DNA of 64,000 bases from an uncultured delta proteobacterium (GTDB lineage: Bacteria; Desulfobacterota; Binatia; UBA9968): contig CAVTUQ010000009.1 of the NCBI GenBank assembly GCA_963737905.1, positions 215,738-279,737 on the forward strand, written 5' to 3'. The notes beneath the pieces are model-generated. The model made no database searches. It was not told the DNA's origin and worked only from the letters and a program-made list of their open reading frames with translations. Numbering within the stretch: position 1 is the stretch's first letter; each line of letters begins with the position of its first letter. The position numbers were made by a program, and so were the translations under genes. Of this stretch, positions 11,341 through 41,054 are shown piece after piece.

Positions 11341-12258
11341 CTAGGAGGCTTCTTCTTGCGCCAGACCAAGAACTCTTTTCCACATTTTGCCGCCGTTGGT
11401 GGAGTGTCGCGTTTTATCTTGCAATTGCGCGATCAGTAGTCGCTTTTCACAAAGTTCCGCGCTCAGTTTTTCGCATTCAGAAGATAGCCGTTCAATGAAC
11501 CTGCCAATCTCTGTTTCGCGGAGGGCGGCCGCATCGATGAAGCCTTGTTTTTGTTTAAGTTCCCTTTCCCGGCTTGCTAATTTCGCCTCGGTCTCTTGGA
11601 GTCGAAGTTGGAGATTTTGAATACTGGCTCGCAAATCTCCCTCGTGCCGACCTAAAGCCAATTCCCGCGCGGCAAGGGACTCCTCACGCTTTCCCAGCTC
11701 AAGCTTGAGGTCGGCGAATTCGGCCTCTATGCGTTCCGTTTGTTGATGGGTGCGAGTTTCCGCTCGTTCAACGGCGAGTTCGGTTTCTTTTAATCGACCG
11801 ACAAGAAAGTCTCTTTCCGCTGCCAGATGTTGTAATTGAATTTCCCGGTTTTTTACTTGAGTCTCCTGGTCTTGAATGCGGCTTTCGAATTCCGCGAACT
11901 TTGCGTTTGACGCCTCCTCAAGTGTCGCCAGAGCTATGTCTCGTGCCTGGAGAAAATCTTCCTTCTCTTTGATTTGGCCCTGCAAGGCTTTGATCTCAGC
12001 TTCCAGCGTCTCTTCGATGTGGTCGGCTGATTTGGCTTCCCTGAGAGCTGCGTCACAGACCTGGTCAGCGAAGGATCTCAACTCGTTCAGGAGGCTCAGG
12101 AGACGGCTGGCACGGGTATTAATATCAGGAGCCCGTTCGTGAACCGCATCGGTGACGACGTTTTCGTCAGCCTGGATAGTTTCGTGCGGCCTGCCATCGC
12201 CATCGAACTTAGCAGCAACTCCACCGGCATCTGGAAGTTCCACGATCTTCTCGAACAA
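11341..12258 (-). CDS. Coiled-coil hypothetical protein
   Basis: E/L/Q/K/R-rich heptads; AGGAGG before TTG start. Confidence 0.75.
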   Translation of the reverse strand: MFEKIVELPDAGGVAAKFDGDGRPHETIQADENVVTDAVHERAPDINTRASRLLSLLNELRSFADQVCDAALREAKSADHIEETLEAEIKALQGQIKEKEDFLQARDIALATLEEASNAKFAEFESRIQDQETQVKNREIQLQHLAAERDFLVGRLKETELAVERAETRTHQQTERIEAEFADLKLELGKREESLAARELALGRHEGDLRASIQNLQLRLQETEAKLASRERELKQKQGFIDAAALRETEIGRFIERLSSECEKLSAELCEKRLLIAQLQDKTRHSTNGGKMWKRVLGLAQEEAS

Positions 12259-12315
12259 AATGACCTCCTGCTAACGAAGTCGAATTTCGCCCCTGAAGGC
12301 GTCGGCAAAAAGCCG

Positions 12316-12331
12316 AGCAAGTCTCATACCG
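12316..12331 (-). promoter_or_regulatory. Sigma-54 promoter candidate
   Basis: Minus strand CGGTATGAGACTTGCT = GG-N10-GC, about 60 nt upstream of the 12258 start. Confidence 0.55.
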
Positions 12332-12593
12332 CCGGGAGGATTTTTTATCCTTTTCGATAAGCCATTGAAAAAACGGGTTTCTTCGCTCAATGGATTAGCA
12401 CAATACCTGCAAAAGGAAGACATAGATGAACATTACAGGACAGAATTGGCCATTGCCGTCAGTGGGTAATCATGCGAGAGCGAAAATGCCATCGACAAAT
12501 ATCGAGGGAGCAGAAACGACAGAAACAAATGAAAGTATTTACGGGCTAGACGGGAGTCGAAGGGCCGTCTTGTCGGTGTTGTGCGAGCTAGAG

Positions 12594-13268
12594 TTACCTA
12601 TAAGCCGCGGGTGCCGTCGGCTGGTGCATTACCAAGAGGGCGGCCTTGAAGCGGTTGTGGACTTGCAGCTTGTCGAAGATGTTCGTGAGATGAGTCTTAA
12701 CGGTTTTCTCGCTGATGAAAATCCTTTTCGCGATTTCGTCGTTCGATAATCCTTCGGCAACCAAGTGTAGGATCTCCAGCTCTCGCTTGGTCAGGCTCTG
12801 GAGTGTCTCATTGGCGGGCGGACCCGCATCGAGTGACTGTCCGCTCGCGATTCGCTGAAAATCAACGCTCGCCGGGAGTTCACGATCTACCCAAATTTCA
12901 CCGGCGTGCACTTTCCTTATTGCCTGGAGCAAGGTGGGTGACGAAACACCTTTGAGAATATAGCCGCGAGCGTGCCCCTTGGCGGTGTCTAATACATTCT
13001 CGGTCTCCGAATAAGCAGTGAGAATCATCACCTTCGTTGCTGGACTCTTTGCATTGATTTTGGCCAACGACTGGAGGCTGTCTCCTTTGGGCATTTTGAG
13101 ATCCAGAAGCAGGATATCCGGCCGCATGCGCTCGACAACGCTGACCGCTTCATCGCCACTAGAGGCCTCACCGACTACCAGAATATCTTTCTCCATGGAA
13201 AAAATTCGCCTGAGACCCTCACGAAATAAAGCATGGTCATCGGCAATAACTAGTTTAATCGGCCCCAC
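12594..13268 (-). CDS. NarL/LuxR-family response regulator
   Basis: IADDHALFREGL, LLDLKMP, LTKRELEIL..GLSNDEIA..ISEKTVKTH. Confidence 0.93.
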   Translation of the reverse strand: MGPIKLVIADDHALFREGLRRIFSMEKDILVVGEASSGDEAVSVVERMRPDILLLDLKMPKGDSLQSLAKINAKSPATKVMILTAYSETENVLDTAKGHARGYILKGVSSPTLLQAIRKVHAGEIWVDRELPASVDFQRIASGQSLDAGPPANETLQSLTKRELEILHLVAEGLSNDEIAKRIFISEKTVKTHLTNIFDKLQVHNRFKAALLVMHQPTAPAAYR

Positions 13269-13495: not shown

Positions 13496-13882
13496 ATGGA
13501 TTTACAAATCAAGTTATTCACTGGCCTGGACCGGGGAAATCACGTGATAATAATAACCCGCGGTGCAATAGACATTGAGGGATTTAGAGAGATATTTCGC
13601 AACGTTGTGAATACAACCCATTCCCTCCTTGACTGCAAGGTGCTGATCGATCTCCAAGATGCGACGTACAAACTGGAACCGGGAGATATCCGCGCTTTTG
13701 CCGACAATCTAAGGCCGGAGTATTGGCCCAATACCAACAGAGTTGCCCTGGTTTCTGAGCCAGACCCACAGGACTACCGCCAGCTGTGTGTTCTGAGCAC
13801 GTTTTTGTCGAATCGGGCTATCAAAAACGCTGTCTTTAAGGACACAAAAACCGCTGTGAATTGGCTCGCTGAACTAATGTAG
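13496..13882 (+). CDS. Hypothetical protein, STAS/SpoIIAA-like
   Basis: GGAGG RBS; KVLIDLQDA..RVALV..VFKDTKTAVNWL pattern. Confidence 0.65.
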   Translation: MDLQIKLFTGLDRGNHVIIITRGAIDIEGFREIFRNVVNTTHSLLDCKVLIDLQDATYKLEPGDIRAFADNLRPEYWPNTNRVALVSEPDPQDYRQLCVLSTFLSNRAIKNAVFKDTKTAVNWLAELM

Positions 13883-13979
13883 CTCCGATAGCTGGCCGGG
13901 CAGCAAACTCAGGCTTGGCCACCTATTTCCTGCGTAGGCGCAGACTGTCTCGTAGCCTTCAAGATTCGTAAACCACTGT

Positions 13980-15017
13980 CTATTTTTGAAAGCCAAAGAT
14001 CTTGCCGTACTCAGAGGTGAGGCGATCCACCATCTCGGCCTGTTCTTGTTTCATGTAGATGACCTTTTTCCCCTGCGCGTATTTGTAGGCCGGTGTGCCG
14101 GGGACAAAGGCTGAGGTTTGCCCGCCGAACTTGTACAATACTTCCTGAGCTTGCGTAGTCGTGAGAAAAGCAGAGAACAGATGTCCCGCATTGGGATGCG
14201 GGGAACCTTTGAGCACGCCTGCATTGTAAGCCGGAGAAATCACGGGCGTCACCTCTTCGGCATGGACGATCGGCGCACCCTTCAGCTTGGCCTGATGTGT
14301 GAAGCTATCCGTCATCGTGATCGTGACGAGAATTTCACCCAACTGTAGGCGCGTGTAAAGCGTGCCGAATTCTCCCAGCATCGGCTCTTGTCGCGCCAGA
14401 AGTTTCACGTACTCCGTTGTCTTGCTCTCTCCCCATAGCGTCGCCAGCCGGGCGAGATGGTGCGTGGCGGTGCTCATGCCCAATTTGCCGCCTTTCCACT
14501 TGGGGTCGAGAAGATCCTGCCAGCTCTTGGGGACGTCTTGCGAAGCCACGAGCTTGTTGTTGTAGGCCGGCATGACAAACTGGTTCGCTAAAATAACCGT
14601 GCCGCTGTCAAATTGAATTGCCTGTGGATCGACACCGATTTTCGTGTAATCGAATGTTTTGTGGAGTTTCTTCAGCCAGAGAGTGGCATGGCCTCCATCA
14701 TGCACCAGCATGACATCCCATTCTTGCGGCAGGCCGGAGGCTGATATTCCGACAATTTTCCCCACGTCTCTGGTCATCGACCCAGAGGGGCTAAAATTCA
14801 ACTTGAGGTTCAGACCGTAGTGCTTGTTGAATGCTTCGCCCAGTCTCTGGGCTCCTTGAGGAGTCAAGGTGGACGGTGCATAGAGTTCGATGACGCCCTC
14901 CTTTTTCGCGCCGGCGATGAGTTCGTCAATGGGCGCTGCACTTGCTGGCCAAATGGACACGCCAAAAATGAGCAGCGCTACTAGAAATGAAGCACCATTG
15001 AATCTCCATTGCTTCAC
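13980..15017 (-). CDS. Extracellular solute-binding protein (Fe3+/polyamine-type)
   Basis: Signal peptide; AKKEG, PKSWQDLLDPKWKG, SPHPNAGHLF; AGGAGG RBS. Confidence 0.87.
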   Translation of the reverse strand: MKQWRFNGASFLVALLIFGVSIWPASAAPIDELIAGAKKEGVIELYAPSTLTPQGAQRLGEAFNKHYGLNLKLNFSPSGSMTRDVGKIVGISASGLPQEWDVMLVHDGGHATLWLKKLHKTFDYTKIGVDPQAIQFDSGTVILANQFVMPAYNNKLVASQDVPKSWQDLLDPKWKGGKLGMSTATHHLARLATLWGESKTTEYVKLLARQEPMLGEFGTLYTRLQLGEILVTITMTDSFTHQAKLKGAPIVHAEEVTPVISPAYNAGVLKGSPHPNAGHLFSAFLTTTQAQEVLYKFGGQTSAFVPGTPAYKYAQGKKVIYMKQEQAEMVDRLTSEYGKIFGFQK

Positions 15018-15088
15018 GGACCACCTCCTGTTATCGACTTGATGGGCACTTTATTGCGGCTGTGACAGGTTCGCAAGAATAATATTTC

Positions 15089-15117
15089 TTGACTCCCGTC
15101 TCGACGCGCCCTAATCT
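15089..15117 (+). promoter_or_regulatory. Sigma-70 promoter candidate
   Basis: TTGACT-17 nt-TAATCT upstream of the 15214 gene. Confidence 0.4.
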
Positions 15118-15213
15118 CTCGCGGAGTCAAAATGAAATAAACCTAACTTAAGAGAAGCGACCCGGCGGCTCGCATGCTGGAAAGAAGCATCGATGGTAAG
15201 GAAAGGAGCTAAC

Positions 15214-16257
15214 ATGTTCCCCATTGATCGAATGATTTCGTTAGGAGTAAGAAAGGGATTGCAAATCCTTCTCGGTGCGACCTTTGGTCTGACCTGTCCG
15301 CTTACCGCCGCGGGAGCAGAGCTCGGCGGAAAGCCGGAGAAGGCAGCGGTCTCTATCGCCTACGTATCACCTAGCGCTGCCTTCACCCCGCTTTTTGTCG
15401 CCGCCGAAGCCGGCCTTTTTTCCAAATACGGACTGAATGTGAAGGCCCAATTGCTTGGCCCTGCAGTTGCCCAGCAGGGTCTTGTTTCCGAGGAAATTGA
15501 TATCCTCGTAGACGGGCCTCTTCTAATACCGGCTAGGCTCGGTGCCGCGCGCGTTAGATATTTTGGGGCATACATGCAGCGCTATGCGTTTCAGATATGG
15601 GGCATAGCAGGAATCACGGCCCTCGAACAATTGAAGGGGAAGACAATAGCGGTATCGGTGCCGCGCGGTGCGATCGACATCTCCACCCGCGAAGCACTCA
15701 AAAAGAAAGGAATCACGCCTGACAGCGACGTCAAATTCGTATATAACGCTCAAGTTCCGGCCGTTCTCACAGCGATTCTAACCGGGACGGTTTCAGCAGG
15801 CACCATATCTGCCCCTCTCAACCTCAAAGCAAAAGAGGCCGGCCTCAATTTTTTGCTGGATATTGGAGAGCTGAATATCTCCGGATTGCAAGGAGCGTAT
15901 GGAACAACCGAGCGGTTTCTCGGCAACCATCCGCATACCCTCTATGCGTTCAGTAAAGCGATGGCTGAAGGCGTTGTTCTTTCCAAAAGAGATAGCGCTC
16001 TGGCAAAGAAAGCGATCGGCAAATTTGCCAAGGTCGATGATAGTAAGATACTCGATGCGTCTTATGATGCCTACGCCCCTTATATCGAGACCAACCTTGC
16101 CGTCCGGGATCAAGTGATCCGAGCGGAGTTGGGGTACCTGGACCCCAAAGAATTTCCCCAGGCGAAGAATGCGAATCCAAGAGATTTCTTTGATAATTCG
16201 TTCGTCGAGAGCTTGGAGAAGTCCGGTTTCTTCGCGACGATCGGCCTGGGCAGATGA
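15214..16257 (+). CDS. ABC substrate-binding protein, NMT1/SsuA/THI5-like
   Basis: AAEAGLFSKYGL, QLKGKTIAV, DNSFVESLEKSGFF. Confidence 0.87.
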   Translation: MFPIDRMISLGVRKGLQILLGATFGLTCPLTAAGAELGGKPEKAAVSIAYVSPSAAFTPLFVAAEAGLFSKYGLNVKAQLLGPAVAQQGLVSEEIDILVDGPLLIPARLGAARVRYFGAYMQRYAFQIWGIAGITALEQLKGKTIAVSVPRGAIDISTREALKKKGITPDSDVKFVYNAQVPAVLTAILTGTVSAGTISAPLNLKAKEAGLNFLLDIGELNISGLQGAYGTTERFLGNHPHTLYAFSKAMAEGVVLSKRDSALAKKAIGKFAKVDDSKILDASYDAYAPYIETNLAVRDQVIRAELGYLDPKEFPQAKNANPRDFFDNSFVESLEKSGFFATIGLGR

Positions 16258-17386: not shown

Positions 17387-18139
17387 TCACGCTGTTTCCC
17401 GTTCTAGGCGGAGCATGGCCGCTTTGAGACTGGAGCGCATGCGCTCGAGAGAACGGGCAAGGTCTCCGATCTCGTCACGCGATTCTACGCATTTCCCACT
17501 GACCGACGTTTCCAGGTCACCCTTGGTAACCTTGTCCGCAACTTCCGTTAAGCCTACGATGGGTCGAACAATCCAATGCGCCAGAATAAACGACAGCAGG
17601 GTGCCGACGAAAGGAACGATCGCAATTATTCCGATGAAACGAAAAAGGGTGCTGTGGACTTCTCTTTCAACGACATCGGCCCAAAACCCCACATGTACAC
17701 TTCCCACCTGTCCCTCCAGAACGGGGACACTGGTTTCATAGATCGTTTTGTCCCTCAATAAAAGTTCTTGCTTTCGGGTTTCGCGTTGTCCGGCGGCGGA
17801 AAGTCCTTGCCGGAGCTCTGGAGGGAAGGATTCCAAGGTATGGGCGACGATTTCACCTTTATTATCTTCGATATAGGCGTAAGCCACGCCATCAAGAAGC
17901 GAATACTTTCTCAACAAGGCATGAAGCGCTAGGAGATTTCTTCCGACCAAGTGGCCCGCGGTTGCATCACTCAAGTTACTGGCTACAGCGAGAGCCCGTC
18001 TGTCGAGTTGATCCCGCAACATGTTGTTGGTGAGTTGATACATCGCGGCAATCACAAAAACACTCAAAACCAACATGACGACGGCATACGTGCCGCCGAT
18101 CTTCCATTTGAGGCTAATACGGCGCGATTCTGGGTCCAT
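17387..18139 (-). CDS. Membrane sensor-like HAMP domain protein without output domain
   Basis: Two TM helices, then IVRPI..ADKVTKGDL..SRDEIGDLARSLERMR and stop; AGGAG RBS. Confidence 0.85.
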   Translation of the reverse strand: MDPESRRISLKWKIGGTYAVVMLVLSVFVIAAMYQLTNNMLRDQLDRRALAVASNLSDATAGHLVGRNLLALHALLRKYSLLDGVAYAYIEDNKGEIVAHTLESFPPELRQGLSAAGQRETRKQELLLRDKTIYETSVPVLEGQVGSVHVGFWADVVEREVHSTLFRFIGIIAIVPFVGTLLSFILAHWIVRPIVGLTEVADKVTKGDLETSVSGKCVESRDEIGDLARSLERMRSSLKAAMLRLERETA

Positions 18140-18755: not shown

Positions 18756-20345
18756 ATGCGCACGAACGGAACGACGATAGATCGAAGGGAGTTCCTCAGG
18801 CGGGGCACTGCGCTAACCGTGGGAACTTTGATGGCACCCGCCTTTCTGGAGAGCGCATGGGCGGCCTCAAAAGATCGAGTGATCATTTTTCAGGGGGTCG
18901 GTTTGGATTCGCTGCATCCCTACGCCTATAGCGGCGGCGGCATCGTTGGCATCTGGCAACACATGATAGAGCCGTTGGTCCAGATGGACTACGGGCAAAA
19001 TGAATACGTCGGGGTTCTGGCCGAGTCTTGGGAATTTCAAGATAGGAGATGGGTATTTAAACTCAGGAAGGGAGTCCGCTTTCACAACGGATCTCCCTTT
19101 ATGTCCAAGGACGTGGTGTTTTCTCTCGATAGAATGAAGAGCGACAAGAGAAGTCTGCAGGGAGGCGACATTGCGGAGCTGGAGGTGGAAGCTCCGGATG
19201 ATTACACCGTTGTGATGACGACCAAGAATCCGAGTGCCATCCTGCTTGACCGGCTGGACACTCGTTTCATCATCAGCAAGGCCGCCGCCGACAAATATGG
19301 AGAGCAGATGGACAATTACGCGATAGGCACCGGGCCATATAAATTTGTGAGCTGGCAACGAGGCGGCAGTTTGGCGTTGAAGCGGAATGACGACTACTGG
19401 GGACCCAAGCCCGAAATCAAGGAAGTGATCTTAAAAGGCGTGAAGGAAGAAGCAGCACGCGTCGCGGGTTTGCTGGCAGGCCAGGCGGATATCATCAGCA
19501 ATCTTTCGATTGAAGAGATACCGCGTGTCGAAAAACATCCGCGGACGCGCGTCGAAAAGGTGCCGGGATTTCGGATGTATTTTTTGGCGATGAATGTGAC
19601 TCATAAACCTTTCGACAACAAGCTCGTGCGCAGGGCCGTCAATCATGCCGTAGATCCACAGGTGATTATGAAACACATCTTCGACGGCAATGGCGATGTG
19701 CTTAACGGTCCTTTGAACTCGAATATGGTTGGCTACGATCCGAATGTGAAGCGCTATCCGTATGATCCGAAAAGGGCGCGTGAGCTGCTCACTCAGGCCG
19801 GCTATCCCAACGGATTTGAGGTCAAGCTGCATTTTTCGCCCGACCGCCATCTCAAGGGCAAGGAAGTTTGCGAGGTAATCGCGAGTCAGCTAGCCAAAGC
19901 CGGTGTGAAGGTTGAGCTCATCGGCCAGGAGTATGCGGTTTACTGGGGCAAAGATGGCGTCAACGGCGGCAAGCTGCCGTTTTATTACGCCGGTAGAACG
20001 GCGAGTGATGGCGATACACTCTATGATCAGTACTTTCACACCGGCGTCACCAAGCGAATCGGTTACAGCAACCCTGAGTTCGACAAGCTCATTCAAGAGG
20101 AGCAGAAGACCGGCGATCAGAAAAAGCGCGTGGCGTTTCTGCAGCAAGCAGGGCGGATTCTTATGGAGGATGCTCCCTTCGTCCCGCTCTACACTCTGGC
20201 TGAGATTTACGGCCTTGCGAGAAATATTTTCTGGAAAGGCAATCCGGACAACCGAATCCTTGCGGCTGAAATGAAGATTAAGCTTCTAGCGAGAACTCAC
20301 CGCGAGGATATACGCTATTCATCAAAATTTGTGATGCTCGCCTAA
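18756..20345 (+). CDS. ABC peptide/nickel substrate-binding protein (family 5), Tat signal
   Basis: DRREFL; LAESWE..FKLRKGVRFHNG; GTGPYKF; PFDNKLVRRAVN. Confidence 0.92.
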   Translation: MRTNGTTIDRREFLRRGTALTVGTLMAPAFLESAWAASKDRVIIFQGVGLDSLHPYAYSGGGIVGIWQHMIEPLVQMDYGQNEYVGVLAESWEFQDRRWVFKLRKGVRFHNGSPFMSKDVVFSLDRMKSDKRSLQGGDIAELEVEAPDDYTVVMTTKNPSAILLDRLDTRFIISKAAADKYGEQMDNYAIGTGPYKFVSWQRGGSLALKRNDDYWGPKPEIKEVILKGVKEEAARVAGLLAGQADIISNLSIEEIPRVEKHPRTRVEKVPGFRMYFLAMNVTHKPFDNKLVRRAVNHAVDPQVIMKHIFDGNGDVLNGPLNSNMVGYDPNVKRYPYDPKRARELLTQAGYPNGFEVKLHFSPDRHLKGKEVCEVIASQLAKAGVKVELIGQEYAVYWGKDGVNGGKLPFYYAGRTASDGDTLYDQYFHTGVTKRIGYSNPEFDKLIQEEQKTGDQKKRVAFLQQAGRILMEDAPFVPLYTLAEIYGLARNIFWKGNPDNRILAAEMKIKLLARTHREDIRYSSKFVMLA

Positions 20346-20375: not shown

Positions 20376-21875
20376 CTAGCGACCGTTCACAAACTCGTCG
20401 AGCGCTTGACCGAAGGCTGCGCCGTGAATTCCATAGGAGCTGAAATCCCCCGCAAACGCGCTTAAGGCCCAGAGCGCCGCATCGCGGTATCGGGACTCTC
20501 CTGTCGCCCCTGCGAGCCCAAGGAAGAACGATGCCGCCGCGCCGTTTTGCTCGATCAATGTCAGGCGAAAGCTGAGGTAAGCGTATCCCGGAATGGCGAG
20601 GTCGTAGTAGCCTCCGTCGGGATTTTTGAGCCGCGACAGAATAAACTCAGCCAGGTCTTTGGCCCGCTCGAGATATCCGGCATCGCCCGTAGCCCTGTGA
20701 GCCTTGAGCAGCGCCGCTCCCAAGCGCGCTTGATCATTCAGTAGTCCCGGGACATGGGCTGCGCCATCGAAGTAATGAAACATTCCTCCATCGGGGCAGC
20801 GGCAATGCTCCCAAAGAAAATCCAGTGCCTTCAGCCCGCGCTCTTTGCAACCCGGGTTTGCCAAAATCGAGGCGGCCTCGAGATAGGCGGTAATCGCTTG
20901 CGCGTTCGCATCAGTGTAAACACAGTTATCTATAATCGTAAAAAATTCTTCGCGTGATGAAGATGGCGCCGTTTCGCTGCGCAGGAAATCCTCGCAGCCG
21001 TAAAAACTCTGGTTTGCGGAATGAGAAAGTTTGCGGTCGATATAGTCGATGATGTCTTCGGCCATATGGCCATATTCCGAGTACTCTGTGATTCGAAAAG
21101 TCCGTAGGCAGTTTGTCAACAGCCCAGCTTGTTCCGCCAGCAGCTTTTCACGATGAGGACGACTCCAGTCCGCATTGGAGCACGTGCGAAAATAACCACC
21201 CTCTTCGCGATCGTGCATCTCACCTTCTCTCATCCGGTCCAGGGTGAGGCGGACGTGATCGAGGTAGCTCGCGTCTTTCGTCGCCTCATAGCGGGAAAGC
21301 AAGAAATCGTTCGCTTCCGGATGGATGAATTTCTGGCCCCGGCCATAGCCGCCGTGAACGCGGTCCGCAATCTCCATGATGACCGCGGTGACTTCCGTTA
21401 AGGTGGAGCCCGTCGGGTGGCTGCGCGTTCCTGCGGCCGCTGCGTCGGAAGGAGTCTCGGCCGAATTGTTTCGCGCTGACCGGATTTCTTCCTTCTTTTC
21501 CTGATAACCCGTGTAAATGCTAGCCAGCAGATTTCCGAACTCCTCGCTGGGGAGATAATTCGTAACGCCGAGAAGTTCTCCTGCGGGAGCCATGAAAGCG
21601 ATGGTCGGCCAGCCGTTTAGATTGTAACGCGTGTTGATATCGGGGCGTTGGGTGTCCTCGACGCGAACGGCGACAAAGTAAGCGTTGAGTAGCGCGATGT
21701 TTTCGTCGTCCGAGAAAGCGCCTTCGTCCATGCGCTGGCAGAACCTGCACCAAAATGCCGTCAGAAAAAGCATCACCGGTTTGTCTTCGGCTTGGGCTTT
21801 GGTAAACGCATCATCGCTCCATTCATGCCAACGAATGAGATTAGCCCGGTTAGGATTTGGCGAGAAGCGAATCAT
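20376..21875 (-). CDS. Thioredoxin-domain (DUF255/YyaL-like) protein with helical barrel domain
   Basis: KAQAEDKPV..WCRFCQRM, DINTRY..GWPT, GGYFR..DWSRPHREK. Start uncertain (ORF is open to 21995). Confidence 0.85.
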   Translation of the reverse strand: MIRFSPNPNRANLIRWHEWSDDAFTKAQAEDKPVMLFLTAFWCRFCQRMDEGAFSDDENIALLNAYFVAVRVEDTQRPDINTRYNLNGWPTIAFMAPAGELLGVTNYLPSEEFGNLLASIYTGYQEKKEEIRSARNNSAETPSDAAAAGTRSHPTGSTLTEVTAVIMEIADRVHGGYGRGQKFIHPEANDFLLSRYEATKDASYLDHVRLTLDRMREGEMHDREEGGYFRTCSNADWSRPHREKLLAEQAGLLTNCLRTFRITEYSEYGHMAEDIIDYIDRKLSHSANQSFYGCEDFLRSETAPSSSREEFFTIIDNCVYTDANAQAITAYLEAASILANPGCKERGLKALDFLWEHCRCPDGGMFHYFDGAAHVPGLLNDQARLGAALLKAHRATGDAGYLERAKDLAEFILSRLKNPDGGYYDLAIPGYAYLSFRLTLIEQNGAAASFFLGLAGATGESRYRDAALWALSAFAGDFSSYGIHGAAFGQALDEFVNGR

Positions 21876-22009
21876 GAGCAAAGATAAATCAGACCGTAAC
21901 CCTTTTCTAGCATCATTTAAGTTGCAGAAGAAGCGACGAACCACGGTCCAGTTTTGGAGGCTCGCTGAGGAAGTTGGCGCGCCGTCCACCGTCATGGGCG
22001 CCGGTCTTT

Positions 22010-22110: not shown

Positions 22111-23391
22111 ATGCAATTAACACTCGCATATCATCCGGTCGGGGAAATTCTTTTTGGAACGCAGACGCGCCTTAACGGGACAACGCTGGTTGTCGATCCG
22201 GAGGAGCTGCGCCGAGTGGTCCTGGAAGACGAAGCTATCGAAAGCATGGAGTTCGAAATTGTCCGGCCCGGGGAAAGCTGCCGCGCCGGGCCGATCTTCG
22301 ACATTGTCCAACCACGAGCGAAGGAGCCTGGATCAAGTCCTGATTTCCCCGGCATTTTGGGACCGCCGATGCCTGCCGGCGTCGGGATCACGCATGTATT
22401 GGAGGGAGCCGCAGTTTCAGTTTTGGCGGAAAGATCGCCGGGAGAGTCGAGAAGCGTGACGGGCCGGGTGTTGGAGATGAGCGGAGTTGCTGCCGAAGCA
22501 ACGGTATACTCTTCGATGCAACATTTAGTGGTCATCCCGCACACGCGAGCCGGATTGCCGATTCACGCTATAGACAAGGCCTACCGCAAGGCGGGCCTGA
22601 AGGTTGCCGTTTACCTTAGCCGCGCCGCGCTGAATCATACTCCGGAATCTACACAGACCTTTGACCCGGTTGGTCCAGGGGAGGGAGGACGCGAGGGATT
22701 GCCACGGTTCGCTTACGTCGGCCAAATTTTTTCCCGCCAGCGGAAACCCGCCGTGGACGAGCCGATTCTCTACGGTGCCAACACAGAGGGGATGCTGCCG
22801 GTCGTACTCCATCCCGACGAATGGTTGGATGGAGCGATCGTGCCGTCGCTCCAGTCCTGGTTCGGCGGCACCGAGACCTATTTCTACCAGAATCACCCTG
22901 TGATCCTGGAGCTCTACCGGCGCCATCAGGCACGGGAGATCGATTTCGTCGGGACCATCGCCACGATTGCCGGGTCCGATAACTTCGACCGGGATCGCCA
23001 TTGCCGGGTGGCTGCAAATCTAGTGAAGTGGAACTTGAAGGCCGATGCTGTGGCGCTCACAAAATGGGGTGGTGGATTACCCCACGCCGACTTGGCGGAG
23101 ACCGCGCGACTGCTGGAAGGCATGGGTATACGTACCACCGTGATGGTTTCCGACATGTCCAAAGACCGCCGCGTAGAGTCGGCGCTCCTCTTCAATTTTC
23201 CGGAAGTGAACGCCATCGTCTACAATGGGGGTAACGGCACTCAGTGGGAGATACCCCGTGTGCAGCGAATTATCACCGCAACGCCGGAGCTGGCGGAGCT
23301 ACTGGGCGGACCGATGATGATCGGGGCTTGGAACGTCGTCGGCGTTACGAATCAGCAGGGCGCGTCGCGAATGCGAGCACTGGTTTATTAA
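22111..23391 (+). CDS. grdE: Glycine/sarcosine/betaine reductase component B proprotein-like (GrdE family)
   Basis: IVRPGES..DIVQPRAK, THVLEG, AGLKVAVYL, LHPDEWLDGAI, TYFYQNHPVILELYRRH; GAGGAG RBS; adjacent to grdB. Confidence 0.82.
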   Translation: MQLTLAYHPVGEILFGTQTRLNGTTLVVDPEELRRVVLEDEAIESMEFEIVRPGESCRAGPIFDIVQPRAKEPGSSPDFPGILGPPMPAGVGITHVLEGAAVSVLAERSPGESRSVTGRVLEMSGVAAEATVYSSMQHLVVIPHTRAGLPIHAIDKAYRKAGLKVAVYLSRAALNHTPESTQTFDPVGPGEGGREGLPRFAYVGQIFSRQRKPAVDEPILYGANTEGMLPVVLHPDEWLDGAIVPSLQSWFGGTETYFYQNHPVILELYRRHQAREIDFVGTIATIAGSDNFDRDRHCRVAANLVKWNLKADAVALTKWGGGLPHADLAETARLLEGMGIRTTVMVSDMSKDRRVESALLFNFPEVNAIVYNGGNGTQWEIPRVQRIITATPELAELLGGPMMIGAWNVVGVTNQQGASRMRALVY

Positions 23392-23503: not shown

Positions 23504-23538
23504 AAGTGTTTTTTCCTCTTATGGTGGAGGTTTCTGAA

Positions 23539-24819
23539 ATGCGAGTTGTACATTATCTGAATCAATTCTTCGGCGGTATCGGCGCGGAAGAGCAAGCGGG
23601 GATGGGCCTCGAAGCGCGCACCGGCGCAGTGGGCCCCGCCAAGCTCTTGGAGCAATTGTTGGGCGAAGGCGCTCAGGTCGTGATGACCCTCGTTTGCGGC
23701 GATAACTATGCCGTCGAACATGAGGAAGAGTTGGTTGCCTCCGTTCTGGAAAAGGTCCGCGGCGCAGGTGCGGATCTATTCGTCGCGGGACCGTGCTTCG
23801 AAGCGGGCCGCTATGGGATGGCGGCCGGCGCCCTCTGTGTTGCCGTCCAATCGCAGGTCGGTATTCCCGTCATCACCGGAATGAGCGAGGAAAACCCCGG
23901 CGTCGATCTGTATCGCGATGCACTTTATATTACCGACTCGGGCACCAACGCTGCCCGGATGCGCGACGTGTTACTTAAGATGGCAAAACTCGGGAGAAAG
24001 CTGGTTAACAAGAACGCCATCGGTTTACCTGCAGAGGAAGACTACCTGCGCCGCGGGCTATTGCGCGACCAGGTGGTCGACCAGACGGCGGCGAGGCGAC
24101 TCATCGACATGCTAGTGGCGAAAGTCAAAGGCGAGCCGTTCGAGTCAGAGATGTTGCCCACATCATTCGAGCCGGTGCCGATGCCCTCCGGCGTTAAAGA
24201 TCTTTCCAAAGCCAAGGTGATGCTCATCACGGACGGCGGGCTTGTTCCGAAAGGCAATCCGGACAAGATCCACGGAACTGCGGCGACGCGGTGGGGCGCC
24301 TATAGCATCGAAGGTCGTGACGTTCTCAGCGGCAAAGATTACGAGATCTCCCACGGTGGTTATGATGCGCGATTTGTCCAAGAAGATCCGGATCGTCTCG
24401 TACCCCTCGACGCGATGCGCGAGATGGAAAGGAGCGGCGTCATCGGCAAGCTCCACGACGAATTCATTTCGACTTCGGGCCGGGCGAACCCGCTTTCTAA
24501 CACGCGCCGTCTCGGCCGGGAGATGGCGGAAAAGGCAAAGCAGGAGGGGGTCGATGCCGTCATCCTCACCTCCACCTGAGGCACGAGCACTCGCAGCGGC
24601 GCTGCGATCACAACTGAGCTGGAAAAAGCCGGAATTCCGGTGGTGCAGATTACCTCCGCCATGTCGATTGCGAAGATGGTCGGATCCAACCGCGTCGTTC
24701 TAGGGCATGGCATCGTTCATGTCACCGGCGATGCCAAACTGGCGCCCGAAGAAGAAAAAGACTTGCGCCGCAAGCTCGTGCAAAAGGCGCTCAGCGCACT
24801 GCAATCGAGCGAGAAGTAG
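23539..24819 (+). CDS. grdB: Glycine/betaine/sarcosine reductase selenoprotein B family; Sec at UGA 24577-24579; 426 aa
   Basis: MRVVHYLNQFFGGIG, CGDNY, AGRYG, GGLVPKGNPD, VILTST-UGA-GTSTRSG. Homology continues in frame (ELEKAGIPVV..VGSNRVV..GI) to TAG at 24817. Confidence 0.93.
24591..24607 (+). promoter_or_regulatory. Bacterial SECIS-like hairpin
   Basis: TCGCAGC-GGC-GCTGCGA perfect 7-bp stem beginning after an 11-nt spacer 3' of the in-frame UGA. Confidence 0.75.
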
Positions 24820-24864: not shown

Positions 24865-25899
24865 TCAGTTGCCCAACACCTTCTTCAAACGATCGATGAT
24901 CTCCGGCGGCTGGCTCGTCACTTCTTTGGCCAACTTCTCAAGCTCCTCGCCGCCTACAGGATCGAATTCGTAATTCCTCTTTTTCACTTCCTCTTGCAAC
25001 TGGGGGTCGTTCATCGTCTTCGTATAAGCCTCGCGCAGGGTCTTTAACCGATCGGCCGGAACACCGGGAGGGCCGAGCATGGGCCGCCCCATGGAATCGG
25101 CCGTAACCAGCACCGCGGCGAGGCGCCGTCCGGCTTCAGTCGTCTTGTATTGATCCATGAGTTCAAAGATGGTGGGAGTGTCCGGCAGTCTTCGGTCCCG
25201 CTTCTTCCCCGTCTGAAAAAGGTTGCGCACGAAGCCGTTCTTGCGCCACGTATGATAGGGCTCACGGCCAAAGAAAGCCTCTATGGTAAAAGCGCGGCAT
25301 TGAATTTCGCCGCGCTCGACACCTAGATCAATGTCGGTTCCGCCGGGATAGCCGGTAACGATGTTGAACTTCGCGCCCACGGTTTCCTGCAACAACTTGG
25401 GCAGATAGGAATCAGGTCCGGTGACTCCCGTCGCGCCACATTTGGGCGGCTCTTTGGCGGTGCGGACATCCTCAATAGTTTTGTAAGGAGAGTCAGCACG
25501 CATGTACATCTGCGATTCGCCGCGGGCCGGAGCGCCGATCCAGGTAAACTTAGCCCAGTCGAACTGGATTTCCGATCTCCCAATGAGCTGATTCAGGTAG
25601 AGAGAAGGAATGATGGAGCCAATCAGTGTTAAACCATCGGGTTTGACCATCGTATAAAGATGATTGGCCGCGACCACGTGGCCCGCGCCGGGCATATTCT
25701 GAACGATGAACTCGGGGTTCCCTGGAATGTGCTTCCCCATATGGGCGACGATGAGACGGGCCCACAGGTCGTAAAGGTTGCCCGGTGGAGTGCCCACGAT
25801 AACCCTCACGGTCTTTCCCTGATAGAAGGGCGATTGGGCTTGAGCAGGGGTGATGCCCCAGAGGAGGAAGCACAGAAGAGGAGAGATGATTCTTTTCAT
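24865..25899 (-). CDS. Tripartite tricarboxylate transporter substrate-binding protein (TctC/Bug)
   Basis: FYQGKTVRVIVG, QNMPGAG, KPDGLT, GYPGG..ERGE. Confidence 0.9.
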   Translation of the reverse strand: MKRIISPLLCFLLWGITPAQAQSPFYQGKTVRVIVGTPPGNLYDLWARLIVAHMGKHIPGNPEFIVQNMPGAGHVVAANHLYTMVKPDGLTLIGSIIPSLYLNQLIGRSEIQFDWAKFTWIGAPARGESQMYMRADSPYKTIEDVRTAKEPPKCGATGVTGPDSYLPKLLQETVGAKFNIVTGYPGGTDIDLGVERGEIQCRAFTIEAFFGREPYHTWRKNGFVRNLFQTGKKRDRRLPDTPTIFELMDQYKTTEAGRRLAAVLVTADSMGRPMLGPPGVPADRLKTLREAYTKTMNDPQLQEEVKKRNYEFDPVGGEELEKLAKEVTSQPPEIIDRLKKVLGN

Positions 25900-26053
25900 A
25901 TATCGCACCTCCGCTAGATCGTCTCGCGCTCACAGTTATCTCAGCTGGACTGACCAAGTCAAACGTGGAATCTCTCAGAGAACACTGGCCTACGTCGGCG
26001 GGCCAGCGGTAAATCTGGTTTGGATCTGGAGATGTGATAGGATCGTGGAAACT

Positions 26054-27052
26054 ATGAAGGTCGTTCTTAAAGCGACGGCAAACGTCCTCTTTATCTGCTT
26101 GCTTGTCGTCGAAGCCCACGCCGCTGATCGCCTGCGCCTCGGCTATTCCTCGATTACGGCGAATCGACTGCCACTTTGGCTGGCACAGGAAGCGGGAATT
26201 TTTGCGCGCCACGGAATCGACGCCGAGTTGCTTCTGATACCGAGTGGGACCACCGGCGTGCAGGCTCTCGTGGCGGGCGAAGTGCAGATCTTGTCCGCCA
26301 CCGGCGCGACCGCCGTTGCCGCCGCGCTCCGCGGCGCGGATGTGGTAATCATCGGTAGCCTGGGAGTCATTGAATACAAGCTTGCGGCGCTGCCGCAGAT
26401 TCGGAATACGGAGGCGCTTAAGGGAAAGAGGGTGGGAATCAGCCGCTTCGGATCGTTCACCGATTTTGCATCGCGGCGAGTGCTTCGCCACGTAGGGCTC
26501 AATCCAGAAAAAGATGTGGTGCTGTTACAAACCGGCATTGCCGGCGCTACACAGAGGCTGATGGCTATGTTCAATGGAACGATGGATGCCACCCTCACGC
26601 AGGTGGATACCATCTTGTTGGCCCAGATCAAACTGGGAAAGGAGGTCTCGGTGCTCGGGGGCCTGCTGGAGACGGGCTATCGCGCCACGGGGGCGGATAT
26701 CATGACATCGCGACGCTTTCTCAAAGAGAAGCCCGAAGTCGCCAGACGCTTCATGATGGCGATCGTTGAAGGCATTCATATGGCGCGCACACAGAAGGCT
26801 GCGGCGCTGCGCATGATCAGCAAGCAGCTAAAGGAAAACGACCCGCGGATTCTCGAAGCGCAATATCGGACCTTCGTGATCGATACTTTTCCCACAAAGC
26901 CCTATCCCGATGAGGTCACGGTCCGCTTTTCTCTCGAGGAGTTGGACAGAGAGTTTTCCGGAGCCAAAGACAAAAACGTAAGTCAATTCATCGACGCGAG
27001 TCTTCTCGGGGCCATCGACCAGAGCGGTTTCATCGATAAACTGTATAAGTGA
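26054..27052 (+). CDS. ABC substrate-binding protein, NMT1/SsuA/THI5-like
   Basis: AQEAGIFARHGID, LKGKRVGISRFGS, IDQSGFIDKLY. Confidence 0.88.
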   Translation: MKVVLKATANVLFICLLVVEAHAADRLRLGYSSITANRLPLWLAQEAGIFARHGIDAELLLIPSGTTGVQALVAGEVQILSATGATAVAAALRGADVVIIGSLGVIEYKLAALPQIRNTEALKGKRVGISRFGSFTDFASRRVLRHVGLNPEKDVVLLQTGIAGATQRLMAMFNGTMDATLTQVDTILLAQIKLGKEVSVLGGLLETGYRATGADIMTSRRFLKEKPEVARRFMMAIVEGIHMARTQKAAALRMISKQLKENDPRILEAQYRTFVIDTFPTKPYPDEVTVRFSLEELDREFSGAKDKNVSQFIDASLLGAIDQSGFIDKLYK

Positions 27053-27087: not shown

Positions 27088-28068
27088 TTATTTCCCGCTG
27101 AGCTCGCGACGAACCTCTCTCAGCAGGCTGAAATCGACGACTTTGTCTACCGGGATCTCACCGATATTTTTGTCTGACTTGCGAATGATGTCAAAATGTA
27201 CCTTTAATTGCTTCTCGCCGATGATGCCGTCTTCATTGAGAGCTTTGACGATTGCCGCGTAAGATTCTTTCGCCACGTCCGGCTCGACTTTCCATTCTTT
27301 CTGAATCACTCCGATCGTCCCTTCAGGATTTTCCTTGGCAAAACGCAAGCCGCGATACAACGCTCGCACGACTTTTTTCACTTCTTGCGGATGCTCTTTA
27401 ATGCGCTGCTCCGTAGTGGAGTAGCCGTTGCTGGCAAACTGCACCACATCGCCGACAAAAGAAATTTCGTTGAAGCCGTCCCGCTTCAACAACACGACGG
27501 CGGGAACGGGAACGATGATCGCCGCGACCGAGCCCACGCGCAGCGCCGCAACGCGGGTCCCTTCGCTGCCTATTTGGATAATCAGGGCGTCACGTTCAGG
27601 CTCGACGCCGAAGTGTTTGAGGACGAGACGGGCGGAAAGATCGGAGGTGCCCCCAAATTGGCTGACGCCGACTCGCTTGCCCTTTAGTTCCGCCACCGAC
27701 CCGATCTCCTTTTGCGCCACCAGGTAGTACATGGGACGATCGGCGCCGTAGAAAATTGCCCTGATGGGCGCGCCCCGCGCCGCGAGGCGTAGCCCGGAAT
27801 CGGCGAGCCCATGATACTGCACGTCCCCCGACAGCAAAGCATTTTGAGCCATGGCGGGAATCAACCTGGGCAACTCGATATCGATGCCTTCATCTTTGAA
27901 AAAGCCCCGATGAACCGCTACGAAAAGCGGAAGGTAGCCCATGGAATTGCCGGGCAGCGCGAACTTGATTTTGTCGGCGGCCAGGACGGGAGCGGACAGA
28001 TTCGAGACGGCCATGGCCACGATAAGCGCAAAGGCTATCATCCATTTCTGAAAACTTTGATAATGCAC
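27088..28068 (-). CDS. ABC substrate-binding protein, NMT1/SsuA/THI5-like
   Basis: Signal peptide; GFFKDEGID, ELKGKRVGVSQFG, VDFSLLREV; AGGAGG RBS. Confidence 0.88.
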   Translation of the reverse strand: MHYQSFQKWMIAFALIVAMAVSNLSAPVLAADKIKFALPGNSMGYLPLFVAVHRGFFKDEGIDIELPRLIPAMAQNALLSGDVQYHGLADSGLRLAARGAPIRAIFYGADRPMYYLVAQKEIGSVAELKGKRVGVSQFGGTSDLSARLVLKHFGVEPERDALIIQIGSEGTRVAALRVGSVAAIIVPVPAVVLLKRDGFNEISFVGDVVQFASNGYSTTEQRIKEHPQEVKKVVRALYRGLRFAKENPEGTIGVIQKEWKVEPDVAKESYAAIVKALNEDGIIGEKQLKVHFDIIRKSDKNIGEIPVDKVVDFSLLREVRRELSGK

Positions 28069-28271
28069 ACCTTCCTCCTTTTAGCTATTCTGGGATGTCG
28101 ATCTTGCAAATTTCGCGTAACATACGCGGTTTCTTACGTCAATCAACAGGAGCGGGCTCAAGGACGGACACCCGTGAGATAGAGCTGGTATTTAAGCCTG
28201 CATCTCTTTACGACCCTGCGGAGATCATGTTACGCTCCGAACTCAACAACAACAACGCGAGGAAAATATTT

Positions 28272-29015
28272 ATGAAAATCATCGAGCGGTCATATAGCAC
28301 GAAAGACGACGGGATAGCAGGGTTTATGGCTTATCCCGAGAGAAAGGAGCCAGGGCCGGCGCTGTTTCTTATCCATCCCAAGGGGGGACTCGGCGAGTAC
28401 ATCAAAATCGAGACGCGCAAGTTTGCAAAGCTCGGCTATAGCACGTTTGCAATTAACGTTTTCGAGCAGCTCGGCTATCCGGCCGCGACGCACATCGAAA
28501 CGGGGTCGCAGATACAGGCCAAGACTCCGGATCCTGAGTTTACACGTGTGCTAACCCAAGGCTGGCGTCATCTGCTCGCCCAGCCTCACGTGAACAAGAA
28601 CAGAGTTGCCGTTTGTGGCTATTGCATGGGCGGACGCATCGCGATTCACCTCGTCGCCGCGACTCCCGATGTGCGGGCCTTTGTCGGCTACTATCCGACC
28701 GTGCGCGACGAACCGCAAACCGAATTGCGGCCAGTTCACCCATCGGTCGCGGCAAGAAAAATTCGCTGCCCGTCTATCATCCTGTATGGCGCCGACGACA
28801 TAACCACGGTTATCCCGGTCCAAGACAAGATGATGTATGCCTTCAGAGAAAATGGCCAACCCCTGGAGTGGCATTTCTTCCCATTCGGCGGTCATGGCTA
28901 CGTGGATCCCGGCGCGCCTGGTTATCATGCACACACGGCTGATCTCTCGTGGCCATTGGTCACGGATTTCATGGAGCGCCATCTCAAGTGGGACTCGCCC
29001 TCTTTTCTCGAATAG
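28272..29015 (+). CDS. Dienelactone hydrolase family protein
   Basis: GYCMGG nucleophile elbow, YGADD, GHGY. Confidence 0.87.
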   Translation: MKIIERSYSTKDDGIAGFMAYPERKEPGPALFLIHPKGGLGEYIKIETRKFAKLGYSTFAINVFEQLGYPAATHIETGSQIQAKTPDPEFTRVLTQGWRHLLAQPHVNKNRVAVCGYCMGGRIAIHLVAATPDVRAFVGYYPTVRDEPQTELRPVHPSVAARKIRCPSIILYGADDITTVIPVQDKMMYAFRENGQPLEWHFFPFGGHGYVDPGAPGYHAHTADLSWPLVTDFMERHLKWDSPSFLE

Positions 29016-39951: not shown

Positions 39952-41046
39952 ATGATCGCACCGAATTTGAAGAAGGCGCAGAACGAGTTGGGCGCGGAGA
40001 CGACCTACCAATTATTTTTGGAACGGGAGGGAGTGCCGGCAATCCGGGCGTTCCATATCGAGGATATCCGCCAAGTAGAGCTTCATCCGTGGCCGCGCAT
40101 GGGAGGACGAGGTGTTTATCTCAACTTGGAAGGCACGGAAGGCGTCAACGATTGCTATATCTGCGAGATACCACCGGGAAAATCCCTTGAAGCACAGAAG
40201 CACCTGTTCGAGGAGATGATTTTTGTCATCGGCGGCCGCGGCGCGACAACCGTCTGGCACGACGGAGGGAAGAAGCAGACCTTCGAGTGGGGCGAGGGAG
40301 CGCTCTTTTCACCGCCGCTCAATACCTGGTATCAGCACTTCAACGGCCAGGGAGACAAACCCGTCCGGTTACTGGCCATGACCAACGCCCCGACCATTTT
40401 GAATCTCTTTCACAACATCGATTTCGTCTTCAAGTGCGACTATCCGTTCACCGATCGCTACGGCGGCGAAGAGGACTTTTTCAGCGGCAAGGTGAAAGTG
40501 CCGGCCGAAGGATTCTCGGACACGAATTTCATCCGCGACGTGGGGAGCTTCGAGCTTGTGGAGAGAAAGAACCGGGGTGCGGGCGGCAGGATGATCATGA
40601 TCGAGATGGCCAACAATGTTATGTCCGCTCATATCTCTCAGTTTCCTGTGGGAACCTACAAGAAAGCTCACCGTCATGGCGCCGGAGCGCACGTGATCAT
40701 TCTCAAGGGGGAGGGCTTTTCCGTGATGTGGCGGGAAGGCGAAGACCTTAAAAGATACGACTGGCGCGCCGGCAGTCTGCTGGTTCCACCCGAGCGCTGG
40801 TTTCACCAGCACTTCAACATCGGTGCCGAGCCGGCCCGGTATCTGGCGCTCAAGCCCTTTAGCAGCAGAAAATTTCCCGGCCTGAGAAAACAGTGGGGCA
40901 CGTCCGAGAGCGTGAAAACAGGCGGAGATCAGATCGAGTACGAAGACGAAGATCCACGGATTCGGCGAATGTTTGAAGACGAATTGGCGAAACGTGGCGT
41001 CTCCAGTCAAATGGATGGCACGTCCACCGTGGCGATGCGGGCTTGA
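39952..41046 (+). CDS. Bicupin protein (gentisate-dioxygenase-like fold)
   Basis: QKHLFEEM..WYQHFN and KAHRHG..WFHQHFN; GGAGG RBS. Confidence 0.85.
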   Translation: MIAPNLKKAQNELGAETTYQLFLEREGVPAIRAFHIEDIRQVELHPWPRMGGRGVYLNLEGTEGVNDCYICEIPPGKSLEAQKHLFEEMIFVIGGRGATTVWHDGGKKQTFEWGEGALFSPPLNTWYQHFNGQGDKPVRLLAMTNAPTILNLFHNIDFVFKCDYPFTDRYGGEEDFFSGKVKVPAEGFSDTNFIRDVGSFELVERKNRGAGGRMIMIEMANNVMSAHISQFPVGTYKKAHRHGAGAHVIILKGEGFSVMWREGEDLKRYDWRAGSLLVPPERWFHQHFNIGAEPARYLALKPFSSRKFPGLRKQWGTSESVKTGGDQIEYEDEDPRIRRMFEDELAKRGVSSQMDGTSTVAMRA

Positions 41047-41054
41047 GAGTGGTT

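Follow-up and report, generated by a model that had tools for sequence, protein, structure and literature searches.

A GrdB-family selenoprotein gene in an uncultured Binatia bacterium with serines in place of both UxxCxxC cysteines

INTRODUCTION

What becomes of a glycine-reductase-type selenoenzyme subunit when both cysteines that follow its selenocysteine (Sec) are replaced by serines? The question is raised by a gene, here called grdB', in a 64,000-nucleotide stretch from an uncultured delta proteobacterium of the Binatia lineage (GenBank assembly GCA_963737905.1, contig CAVTUQ010000009.1, positions 215,738 to 279,737; this whole stretch is hereafter the window). The reading frame contains an in-frame UGA. 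An earlier note, made from the sequence alone, had described it as a selenoprotein gene missed by open reading frame (ORF) calling, and its product as having a Sec-only active site that lacks the selenenylsulfide partner, implying different chemistry or oxygen handling. A literature search returned no paper linking grdB or selenoproteins with Binatia.

A genome scan with a GrdB query yielded 34 loci (L001 to L034), of which 32 belong to the same clade as the window gene. As judged from these sequences, the UGA is a Sec codon; the serines probably mark the loss of an auxiliary function and not a change of chemistry.

RESULTS

The in-frame UGA of grdB' is conserved within a conserved reading frame

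The gene and the elements needed to read it are as follows.

23539 to 24819, plus strand: grdB', a GrdB-family selenoprotein gene of 426 codons with Sec at codon 347, starting with ATG at 23539 and ending with TAG at 24817-24819
23526 to 23530, plus strand: Shine-Dalgarno-like GGAGG, 8 nt ahead of the grdB' ATG, read from the sequence
24577 to 24579, plus strand: UGA read as Sec (U347), an in-frame TGA at codon 347 followed by 79 sense codons

The UGA at 24577, the 79 further codons and the terminal TAG are read directly from the sequence, just as the earlier note had stated. TGA occupies codon 347 in all 33 loci that cover the site, and these come from several phyla. Downstream of it, 93% of third codon positions are variable compared to 49% of first and 29% of second positions, and codons 348-422 (75 scored) are under purifying selection. 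Past the TGA, the percent identity of each of 28 loci to the window protein equals or exceeds the full-length value. The 28 full-length loci align with GrdB' without gaps over 422 codons at 70-90% identity and contain no second stop codon. The standard code applies in the window, where TGA terminates 17 of 43 Pfam-supported ORFs, and the column of codon 347 is that of the annotated Sec of grdF, grdH, and prdB. Because the TGA and the coding sequence behind it are conserved and TGA is otherwise an ordinary stop, sequencing error, pseudogenization, and codon reassignment can be excluded for practical purposes; the read error that had been named as a possible objection is thus set aside.

To see how the clade is represented in public protein sets, 5.8 billion proteins were searched. 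The best 120 matches are 77-92% identical to GrdB'; 119 of them end in LTST directly before the Sec codon, and 109 are exactly 346 residues long. When residues 335-426 were used as the query, a single clade member crossing the Sec site was found, with tryptophan at that position (P0272). Public protein sets thus hold the clade almost only as 346-residue stumps, in agreement with the claim that ORF calling had missed the selenoprotein. Overall, sequence conservation identifies GrdB' as the product of a genuine selenoprotein gene that ordinary ORF calling truncates.

GrdB' belongs to an environmental clade of the selenoprotein B family

Read through the UGA, GrdB' matches the Pfam GRDB model (PF07355) with E = 3.8e-131 and 437.9 bits (cut-off 22). 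It scores 467.6 bits (cut-off 65.45) against NCBIfam TIGR01918, the glycine/betaine/sarcosine/D-proline family selenoprotein B, with residues 2-422 aligned to model positions 1-421 of 431. Scores against the equivalog models are below the cut-offs: 431.6 of 602.2 bits for GrdB (TIGR01917), 475.3 of 800 for GrdF (NF040794), 429.8 of 775 for GrdH (NF040795), and 87.5 of 300 for PrdB (TIGR04483). By these profile scores, GrdB' falls within the GrdB/PrdB selenoprotein B family but outside every characterized equivalog, and since it fails the GrdB, GrdF, and GrdH cut-offs, we refer to it as "GrdB family" and not as GrdB proper.

In a maximum-likelihood tree, the clade is monophyletic (support 100/99), its stem measuring 0.82 changes per column, and the window gene is the sister of L001 inside a nine-row subclade (98/89). 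According to the labels of the 34-locus scan, the hosts are mostly metagenome-assembled genomes (MAGs) labelled Binatia, together with Nitrospinota, Dehalococcoidia, Acidiferrales, Udaeobacter, Anaerolineae, and "Deltaproteobacteria." The clade is large, uncultured, environmental, and mis-annotated throughout. One MAG, assembly DAIRFP01, carries two clade paralogues (the contigs of L001 and L011), 90% and 75% identical to the window protein; by analogy, the window's genome may also have a second grdB' copy outside the window.

A hairpin behind the UGA is maintained by compensatory changes

24591 to 24607, plus strand: selenocysteine insertion sequence (SECIS) hairpin of 17 nt, U-CGCAGC-GGC-GCUGCG-A, with a conserved core at 24592-24606 consisting of a 6-bp stem (CGCAGC/GCUGCG) and a GGC loop

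The 17-nt hairpin, whose existence had been claimed from the window sequence, is present and follows the UGA after an unpaired 11-nt spacer (24580-24590). All six core pairs are formed in 100% of 38 distinct sequences. Two of them have changed on both sides, as C-G/U-A in 6 sequences and as A-U/U-A in 7. None of 500 shuffles reached the observed covariation score, and every slid register scored lower. The outer, seventh U-A pair is not conserved and is unpaired in 14 of the 38 sequences. Codons 352 (CGC), 353 (AGC), 355 (GCT), and 356 (GCG) show zero synonymous variation in 29 sequences, while flanking four-fold codons are free to vary.

The hairpin stem includes the second serine codon, as the earlier note had pointed out; this codon (Ser353, AGC, 24595-24597) forms part of the 5′ arm. 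In P. acidaminophilum grdF, E. gilvus grdH, and the Acetoanaerobium and Photobacterium genes, the stem is formed by CGU-UGC/GCA-ACG at the same codons; a second GrdE/GrdB pair in L006 has CGC-UGC/GCA-GCG there. In the A-U/U-A pair, base 1 of the Cys/Ser353 codon is matched with base 3 of the Ala355 codon. For the change from UGC to AGC (Cys353 to Ser), pairing was therefore preserved by a silent change, GCA to GCU, in the opposite arm. The clade hairpin agrees in position with that of canonical grdF and grdH and has been retained by way of compensatory changes.

The 17-nt/11-nt arrangement is also reported to be that of the minimal E. coli fdhF element (Liu et al. 1998). On its own, the 17-nt hairpin folds at −9.9 kcal/mol and the 15-nt core at −8.0 kcal/mol. 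The bSECISearch consensus comprises a loop of 3-9 nt whose first two positions include G, a stem of 4-16 bp, a distance of 16-37 nt from the UGA, and a minimum free energy of at most −7.5 kcal/mol (PMC13188914). By these values, the grdB' hairpin conforms to the bacterial consensus, with its 3-nt GGC loop, 6-7 bp stem, 18 nt from UGA to loop, and −9.9 kcal/mol.

Both cysteines of the UxxCxxC motif are serines throughout the clade

24586 to 24588, plus strand: Ser350 codon AGC, replacing the first Cys of UxxCxxC; among 29 sequences, 26 have AGC and three have AGT; the four references have TGT or TGC

The canonical motif TSTUGTCTRCG, cited earlier as that of clostridial GrdB, was confirmed in four of four reference genes (P. 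acidaminophilum grdF, E. gilvus grdH, and one gene each from Acetoanaerobium and Photobacterium). The window gene reads TSTUGTSTRSG. Replacement of both cysteines, noticed at first in the window alone, extends to the whole clade: UGTSTRSG is invariant in 31 of 31 clade loci, mostly Binatia. Elsewhere in the family, the cysteines are lost singly. PrdB of Terrisporobacter has UGTCHRS, i.e., UxxCxxS, and keeps the first Cys only, while L032, L033, and the second pair of L006 have UxxSxxC and keep only the second. In full-length database representatives of the family, position +3 is C, S, or G, and position +6 is C, S, or A. On these sequences, the clade is the double-loss end of a motif series and not a singular event.

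The cysteines of UxxCxxC are described as protecting Sec from oxidation and not as catalytic residues, with Andreesen 2004 and Parther 2003 cited in support (PMC10838667, PMC6778437). The motif, for which Wagner et al. 1999 is cited, is said to be required as a guard against accidental oxidation (PMC6778437). Fluoroacetate reductase FarB is reported to lack both cysteines, and its selenoether is nevertheless proposed to pass to GrdA (PMC10838667). The serine replacements would thus cost GrdB' only a dithiol with a protective or auxiliary function, and no partner essential for catalysis.

The partner subunit GrdE' lacks the pyruvoyl-forming cysteine

22111 to 23391, plus strand: grdE', encoding a GrdE-like partner subunit (Pfam PF09338, 245.6 bits), directly upstream of grdB'

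The grdE' gene adjoins grdB' in 26 of the 32 clade loci; the other six span less than 720 nt upstream. In GrdE of C. difficile, Cys242 is the precursor of the pyruvoyl group (PMC9908766). The column of GrdG Cys242 is occupied by His, Gln, Thr, Asn, Tyr, or Ser, and never by Cys, in all 26 clade sequences, where the region reads PS(Y/L)(H/Q/...). SGNC is found in three of three sarcosine/glycine-type references (P. acidaminophilum GrdG, Acetoanaerobium, and Photobacterium), and betaine reductase GrdI has SGSF. FarE, like GrdI, is described as lacking the cysteines for pyruvoyl formation and as not being a proprotein (PMC10838667). By the same token, GrdE' is probably not a Cys-derived pyruvoyl proprotein. 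The substrate, therefore, probably needs no Schiff base, as would be the case for a quaternary amine like betaine or a compound with another good leaving group.

A cysteine characteristic of the clade is located in the N-terminal part of GrdB'

23794 to 23796, plus strand: Cys86 codon (GPCF), Cys in 29 of 29 clade sequences and in 120 of the best 120 database proteins

In the 41 non-clade rows of alignment A2 that cover it, the Cys86 column contains Ala in 40 and Gly in 1; Cys is also found in two distant representatives, P0152 and P0199. An AlphaFold model of GrdB' (mean predicted local distance difference test, pLDDT, 93.9; predicted template modeling score, pTM, 0.60) contains two Rossmann-like domains. 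In the model, Cys86 is located in strand 80-87 near its C-terminal end, and Sec347 lies in the other, second domain, just past strand 340-344 at the N terminus of helix 348-363. With a pTM of 0.60, the arrangement of the two domains relative to each other is uncertain. Cys86 could serve as a substitute selenenylsulfide partner.

A sequence search of the Protein Data Bank (PDB) with GrdB' gave 0 matches. When the model was compared to the PDB by Foldseek, only generic two-domain Rossmann-like matches with no functional lead were obtained (TM at most 0.22); matches to GT-B glycosyltransferases and periplasmic binding proteins were rejected as part of this generic set.

grdC and grdA precede the pair in four close relatives

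As revealed by tblastn with E. gilvus proteins, grdC (44-48% identity) is located directly upstream of grdE' in L002, L003, L006, and L024. In the same four loci, grdC is accompanied by grdA (46-50% identity), whose product has HCFVUTA (CxxU) with an in-frame TGA and ~105 further codons. All four loci fall within the nine-row subclade of the window. With GrdA (CxxU) and GrdC encoded directly upstream in these close relatives, the selenenylsulfide partner can sit in GrdA. The gene order in L006 is family-5 solute-binding protein gene, DUF255 gene, grdC, grdA, grdE', grdB'; the window has the identical order minus grdC-grdA. For the window, which lacks grdC-grdA at this position, GrdA would have to be encoded elsewhere, or another thiol would take over. 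No grdD, trxA/trxB, or grdX was found near the grdB' pair.

20376 to 21995, minus strand (divergent): DUF255/thioredoxin-like gene with a CRFC (CxxC) motif (Pfam Thioredox_DsbH, 1.5e-23)
18756 to 20345, plus strand: family-5 solute-binding protein gene (Pfam SBP_bac_5), at the same position in L004, L006, and L028 with 71-73% identity

The DUF255 gene neighbors the pair in the window and nine loci, and both CxxC cysteines are invariant in nine of nine aligned sequences. It is co-directional with the pair in L019 and L027. Since its relatives start at the residue aligned with Met41 of the window ORF, the true start may be at Met41. The solute-binding protein gene possibly belongs to the same module as the pair.

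Other recurrent genes and side observations

28095 to 29015, plus strand: dienelactone-hydrolase-family gene (Pfam DLH), recurring in eight loci with 75-88% identity
29375 to 29878, minus strand: small cupin gene (Pfam Cupin_2), recurring in seven loci with 80-87% identity

In the loci where they recur, the DLH and cupin genes are more conserved than grdB' itself. In L009 (6909-8145), both are located upstream of grdE' and are co-directional with it; the L018 copies are at 1310-2546. It is possible that they act in the same pathway as grdE'B'. Genes for sCache/HAMP-domain sensors are found downstream of grdB' in eight loci (L009, L015, L016, L022, L025, L026, L030, and L034), their products being 27-37% identical to that of the window copy at 17387-18139 (minus strand), which hints at substrate-responsive regulation.

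In L002, which is part of a complete Binatia chromosome, a radical-SAM/DUF3641 gene (12045-13007, minus strand) lies ~0.8 kb downstream of grdB'; the fluoroacetate reductase operon is also reported to have a radical-SAM gene (PMC10838667). The second GrdE/GrdB pair of L006, an Acidiferrales contig, occupies 13503-14828 and 14839-16122 and follows the clade pair downstream at a distance of 3.5 kb. Its motif is UGSSTRCG, a TGA and a hairpin are present here too, and a glyoxalase-family gene is its neighbor.

The 64 kb of the window also contain a marked expansion of solute-binding genes: seven of the NMT1/THI5-like (SsuA/TauA) type and one of the TctC type, along with four Amidohydro_2 genes. 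The solute-binding expansion lies at 3973-5037, 15193-16257, 25850-27052, 27088-28068, 41043-42017, 46099-46830, and 61155-62213. A long-form isocitrate lyase gene next to malate synthase G (57944-60124) is split by an apparent frameshift into overlapping plus-strand ORFs at 55250-56044 and 55998-57698, which match positions 2-223 and 264-525 of the Pfam model in different frames. An alpha/beta hydrolase gene is likewise split into overlapping minus-strand ORFs at 47189-47506 and 47490-48005 (Abhydrolase_1 model positions 2-108 and 182-245). With two apparent frameshifts, indel errors or pseudogenes must be present in the window.

DISCUSSION

Taken together, the results lead us to regard GrdE' and GrdB' as probably the two subunits of a "protein B" that confers substrate specificity on a selenoenzyme of the glycine reductase type, coupled to GrdA. 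In the mechanism we propose, UGA347 would be decoded as Sec by SelB-dependent recoding, and Sec347 would act as a nucleophile on the alpha-carbon of a carboxymethyl-type substrate, yielding a selenoether. With GrdE' presumably devoid of a pyruvoyl group, the substrate would have no need of a Schiff base, as has been described for GrdI and FarE (PMC10838667). The carboxymethyl selenoether would then be handed to selenoprotein A (CxxU), where the selenenylsulfide would form. The serines of GrdB' would amount to the loss of the auxiliary dithiol only.

Several results weigh against this reading. The tblastn searches revealed no grdA, grdC, or grdD in the 64-kb window. They likewise gave no grdA or grdC in the 28 remaining clade loci, of which 15 extend at least 2.5 kb upstream of grdE', and grdD was found in none of the 34 loci. 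Cys86 and the neighboring CxxC protein fit a GrdA-independent route equally well. As to the substrate, not only GrdB' but also GrdE' falls under the equivalog cut-offs (163.4 of 675 bits for FarE, NF053623; 187.7 of 780 for GrdG). Neither selA, selB, nor selD was detected in the 554,624 bases of the window and 34 loci by tblastn with E. coli SelA, SelB, and SelD, the only match being a generic GTPase one to the BipA gene of L020, and ARAGORN found no tRNA gene in the same sequence; Sec decoding in the window's genome is thus something we infer. For the hairpin, folding energy is not significant by itself (z = −1.35 for a 71-nt stretch, with 22 of 200 shuffles folding as well), and the compensatory changes in the stem separate whole clades, so that they represent few independent events. 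A scan of the whole window against Rfam at the gathering threshold gave 0 matches; the library has no GrdB SECIS family, so this result is uninformative.

The best-surviving alternative, which we nevertheless consider unlikely, is a stand-alone two-subunit selenoenzyme resembling D-proline reductase and working without GrdA and GrdC, in which Cys86 or a DUF255 cysteine resolves the selenoether and the selenenylsulfide formed is then reduced. The absence of grdA and grdC from the window and 28 of the 32 clade loci, within the sequence covered, would be explained in this way. So would the invariance of Cys86 in the clade, against Ala or Gly in the 41 other family rows, the predicted position of Cys86 near a strand end and of Sec347 at a helix start, one per domain, and the DUF255 gene with its invariant CxxC beside the pair, co-directional in two loci. 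D-Proline reductase is reported to use a Cys thiolate to open its selenoether (PMC10298544). However, among relatives whose upstream sequence is informative, the closest (L024, L006, L002, and L003) do have grdC-grdA, and three of them have the DUF255 gene as well. In addition, the pTM of the model is low enough to leave the domain arrangement uncertain, Cys86 is shared with the distant P0152 and P0199, and short PrdB-like forms dispense with the whole N-terminal domain.

A bolder form of this alternative strikes us as doubtful. It would make GrdE'B' a GrdA-independent, pyruvoyl-free selenoenzyme whose resolving thiol has shifted out of the UxxCxxC motif, to Cys86 of the other domain or to a dedicated DUF255 protein, and which reductively cleaves a non-amine or quaternary carboxymethyl compound in presumably aerobic soil and ocean lineages. 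The lineages in question are Binatia, Nitrospinota, Dehalococcoidia, Acidobacteriota, and Verrucomicrobiota, and the candidate substrates are betaine-like, halo-, or sulfo-acetate compounds. If true, this would be a new branch of Stickland-type chemistry outside strict anaerobes.

The interpretation given in the earlier note, a Sec-only active site in which no selenenylsulfide is ever formed and which serves chemistry other than reductive C-X cleavage or a special adaptation to oxygen, appears improbable. Both vicinal cysteines are indeed missing clade-wide, the clade sits on its long stem, and families that usually use O2 are encoded in the window and its relatives (a luciferase-like monooxygenase, a GMC oxidoreductase, and, in L028, a Rieske dioxygenase). 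Yet, TST-U-GT-TR-G, the remainder of the active-site strand, has not changed, the GrdE-like partner is kept in all 26 loci with room for it, and GrdA and GrdC are present in four relatives. If the cysteines are protective, as the literature has it (PMC10838667, PMC6778437), their loss predicts more oxygen sensitivity, not less, and FarB is a published precedent for ordinary reductive chemistry without them (PMC10838667). Of the note's overall interpretation, the real selenoprotein, the serine pair, now seen clade-wide, and the serine codon within the SECIS stem have stood. The step from missing neighboring cysteines to a missing selenenylsulfide partner and on to different chemistry or oxygen handling is not supported as stated: the protective role of the cysteines, the FarB precedent, the motif variants of PrdB, L032, L033, and L006, grdC-grdA upstream in four relatives, and Cys86 all stand against it, and this mechanistic inference exceeded the evidence.

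That grdB' encodes no selenoprotein, the TGA being a true stop of a 346-residue protein or pseudogene, a sequencing error, or a variant-code codon, is scarcely credible: the at least two apparent frameshifts in other window genes, the tryptophan in P0272, and the lack of Sec machinery in the window and 34 loci speak for it, but the TGA conserved at one codon in several phyla, the purifying selection and undiminished identity behind it, the hairpin constrained at synonymous sites, the ordinary use of TGA as a stop, and the annotated Sec at the homologous position speak against it.

As the clade is stored as stumps, metabolic reconstructions of Binatia and similar organisms miss a selenoenzyme and a selenium requirement. 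With UxxCxxC, UxxCxxS, UxxSxxC, and UxxSxxS all occurring in the family, neither motif cysteine is indispensable, and the series bears on the long-open role of these cysteines and of the Sec of protein B itself. The joint evolution of the Cys-to-Ser change and the SECIS stem through a compensating synonymous change is a case of overlapping protein and RNA constraint that should be useful for selenoprotein gene finders. Practical weight will be limited until the substrate is known.

Comparison with known systems

Compared to the bacterial SECIS consensus (PMC13188914), the grdB' hairpin has the same small G-rich apical loop, 6-7 bp stem, and position 18 nt after the UGA; it differs in its GGN triloop, in a stem sequence specific to the GrdB family, and in matching no Rfam family.

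GrdB, GrdF, and GrdH of P. acidaminophilum and E. gilvus share with GrdB' the Pfam/TIGR01918 family, the length, and 40-46% identity over residues 1-423, as well as the Sec column in TST-U-GT, the SECIS codons, the GrdE-type gene directly upstream, and, in four relatives, GrdC and GrdA. In contrast, the clade has UxxSxxS, Cys86 where the family has Ala, a separate long branch (100/99), and no grdD, trxA, trxB, or grdX nearby. Instead of Clostridia, it is hosted by Binatia, Nitrospinota, Dehalococcoidia, and other lineages. What marks the clade, going by its sequences, are the UxxSxxS motif, the probably pyruvoyl-free partner, and the extra conserved Cys.

The betaine reductase subunits GrdH and GrdI resemble the pair in having an alpha-type subunit without Cys242 (SGSF in GrdI, PS(Y/L)(H/Q) in GrdE'), which in both cases fits a substrate forming no Schiff base. 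GrdH, however, keeps UxxCxxC, GrdB' reaches 429.8 bits against the GrdH cut-off of 775, and no BCCT transporter gene lies beside the pair.

FarB and FarE of Cloacibacillus porcorum MFA1 have likewise lost both post-Sec cysteines and the GrdE processing cysteines, a likeness that rests on their published description (PMC10838667). They differ in that GrdE' scores 163.4 bits against the FarE cut-off of 675, that the window operon has no radical-SAM or antiporter gene, and that the FarB host is an anaerobic member of the Synergistota.

Last, PrdB of D-proline reductase is a Sec subunit of the same superfamily that also has Ser at +6 (UGTCHRS), and PrdB and PrdA form a two-component enzyme working without GrdA. 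PrdB has 241 residues, lacks the N-terminal domain, and keeps Cys at +3, and PrdA is a pyruvoyl proprotein, whereas GrdB' has 426 residues and a GrdE-like partner.

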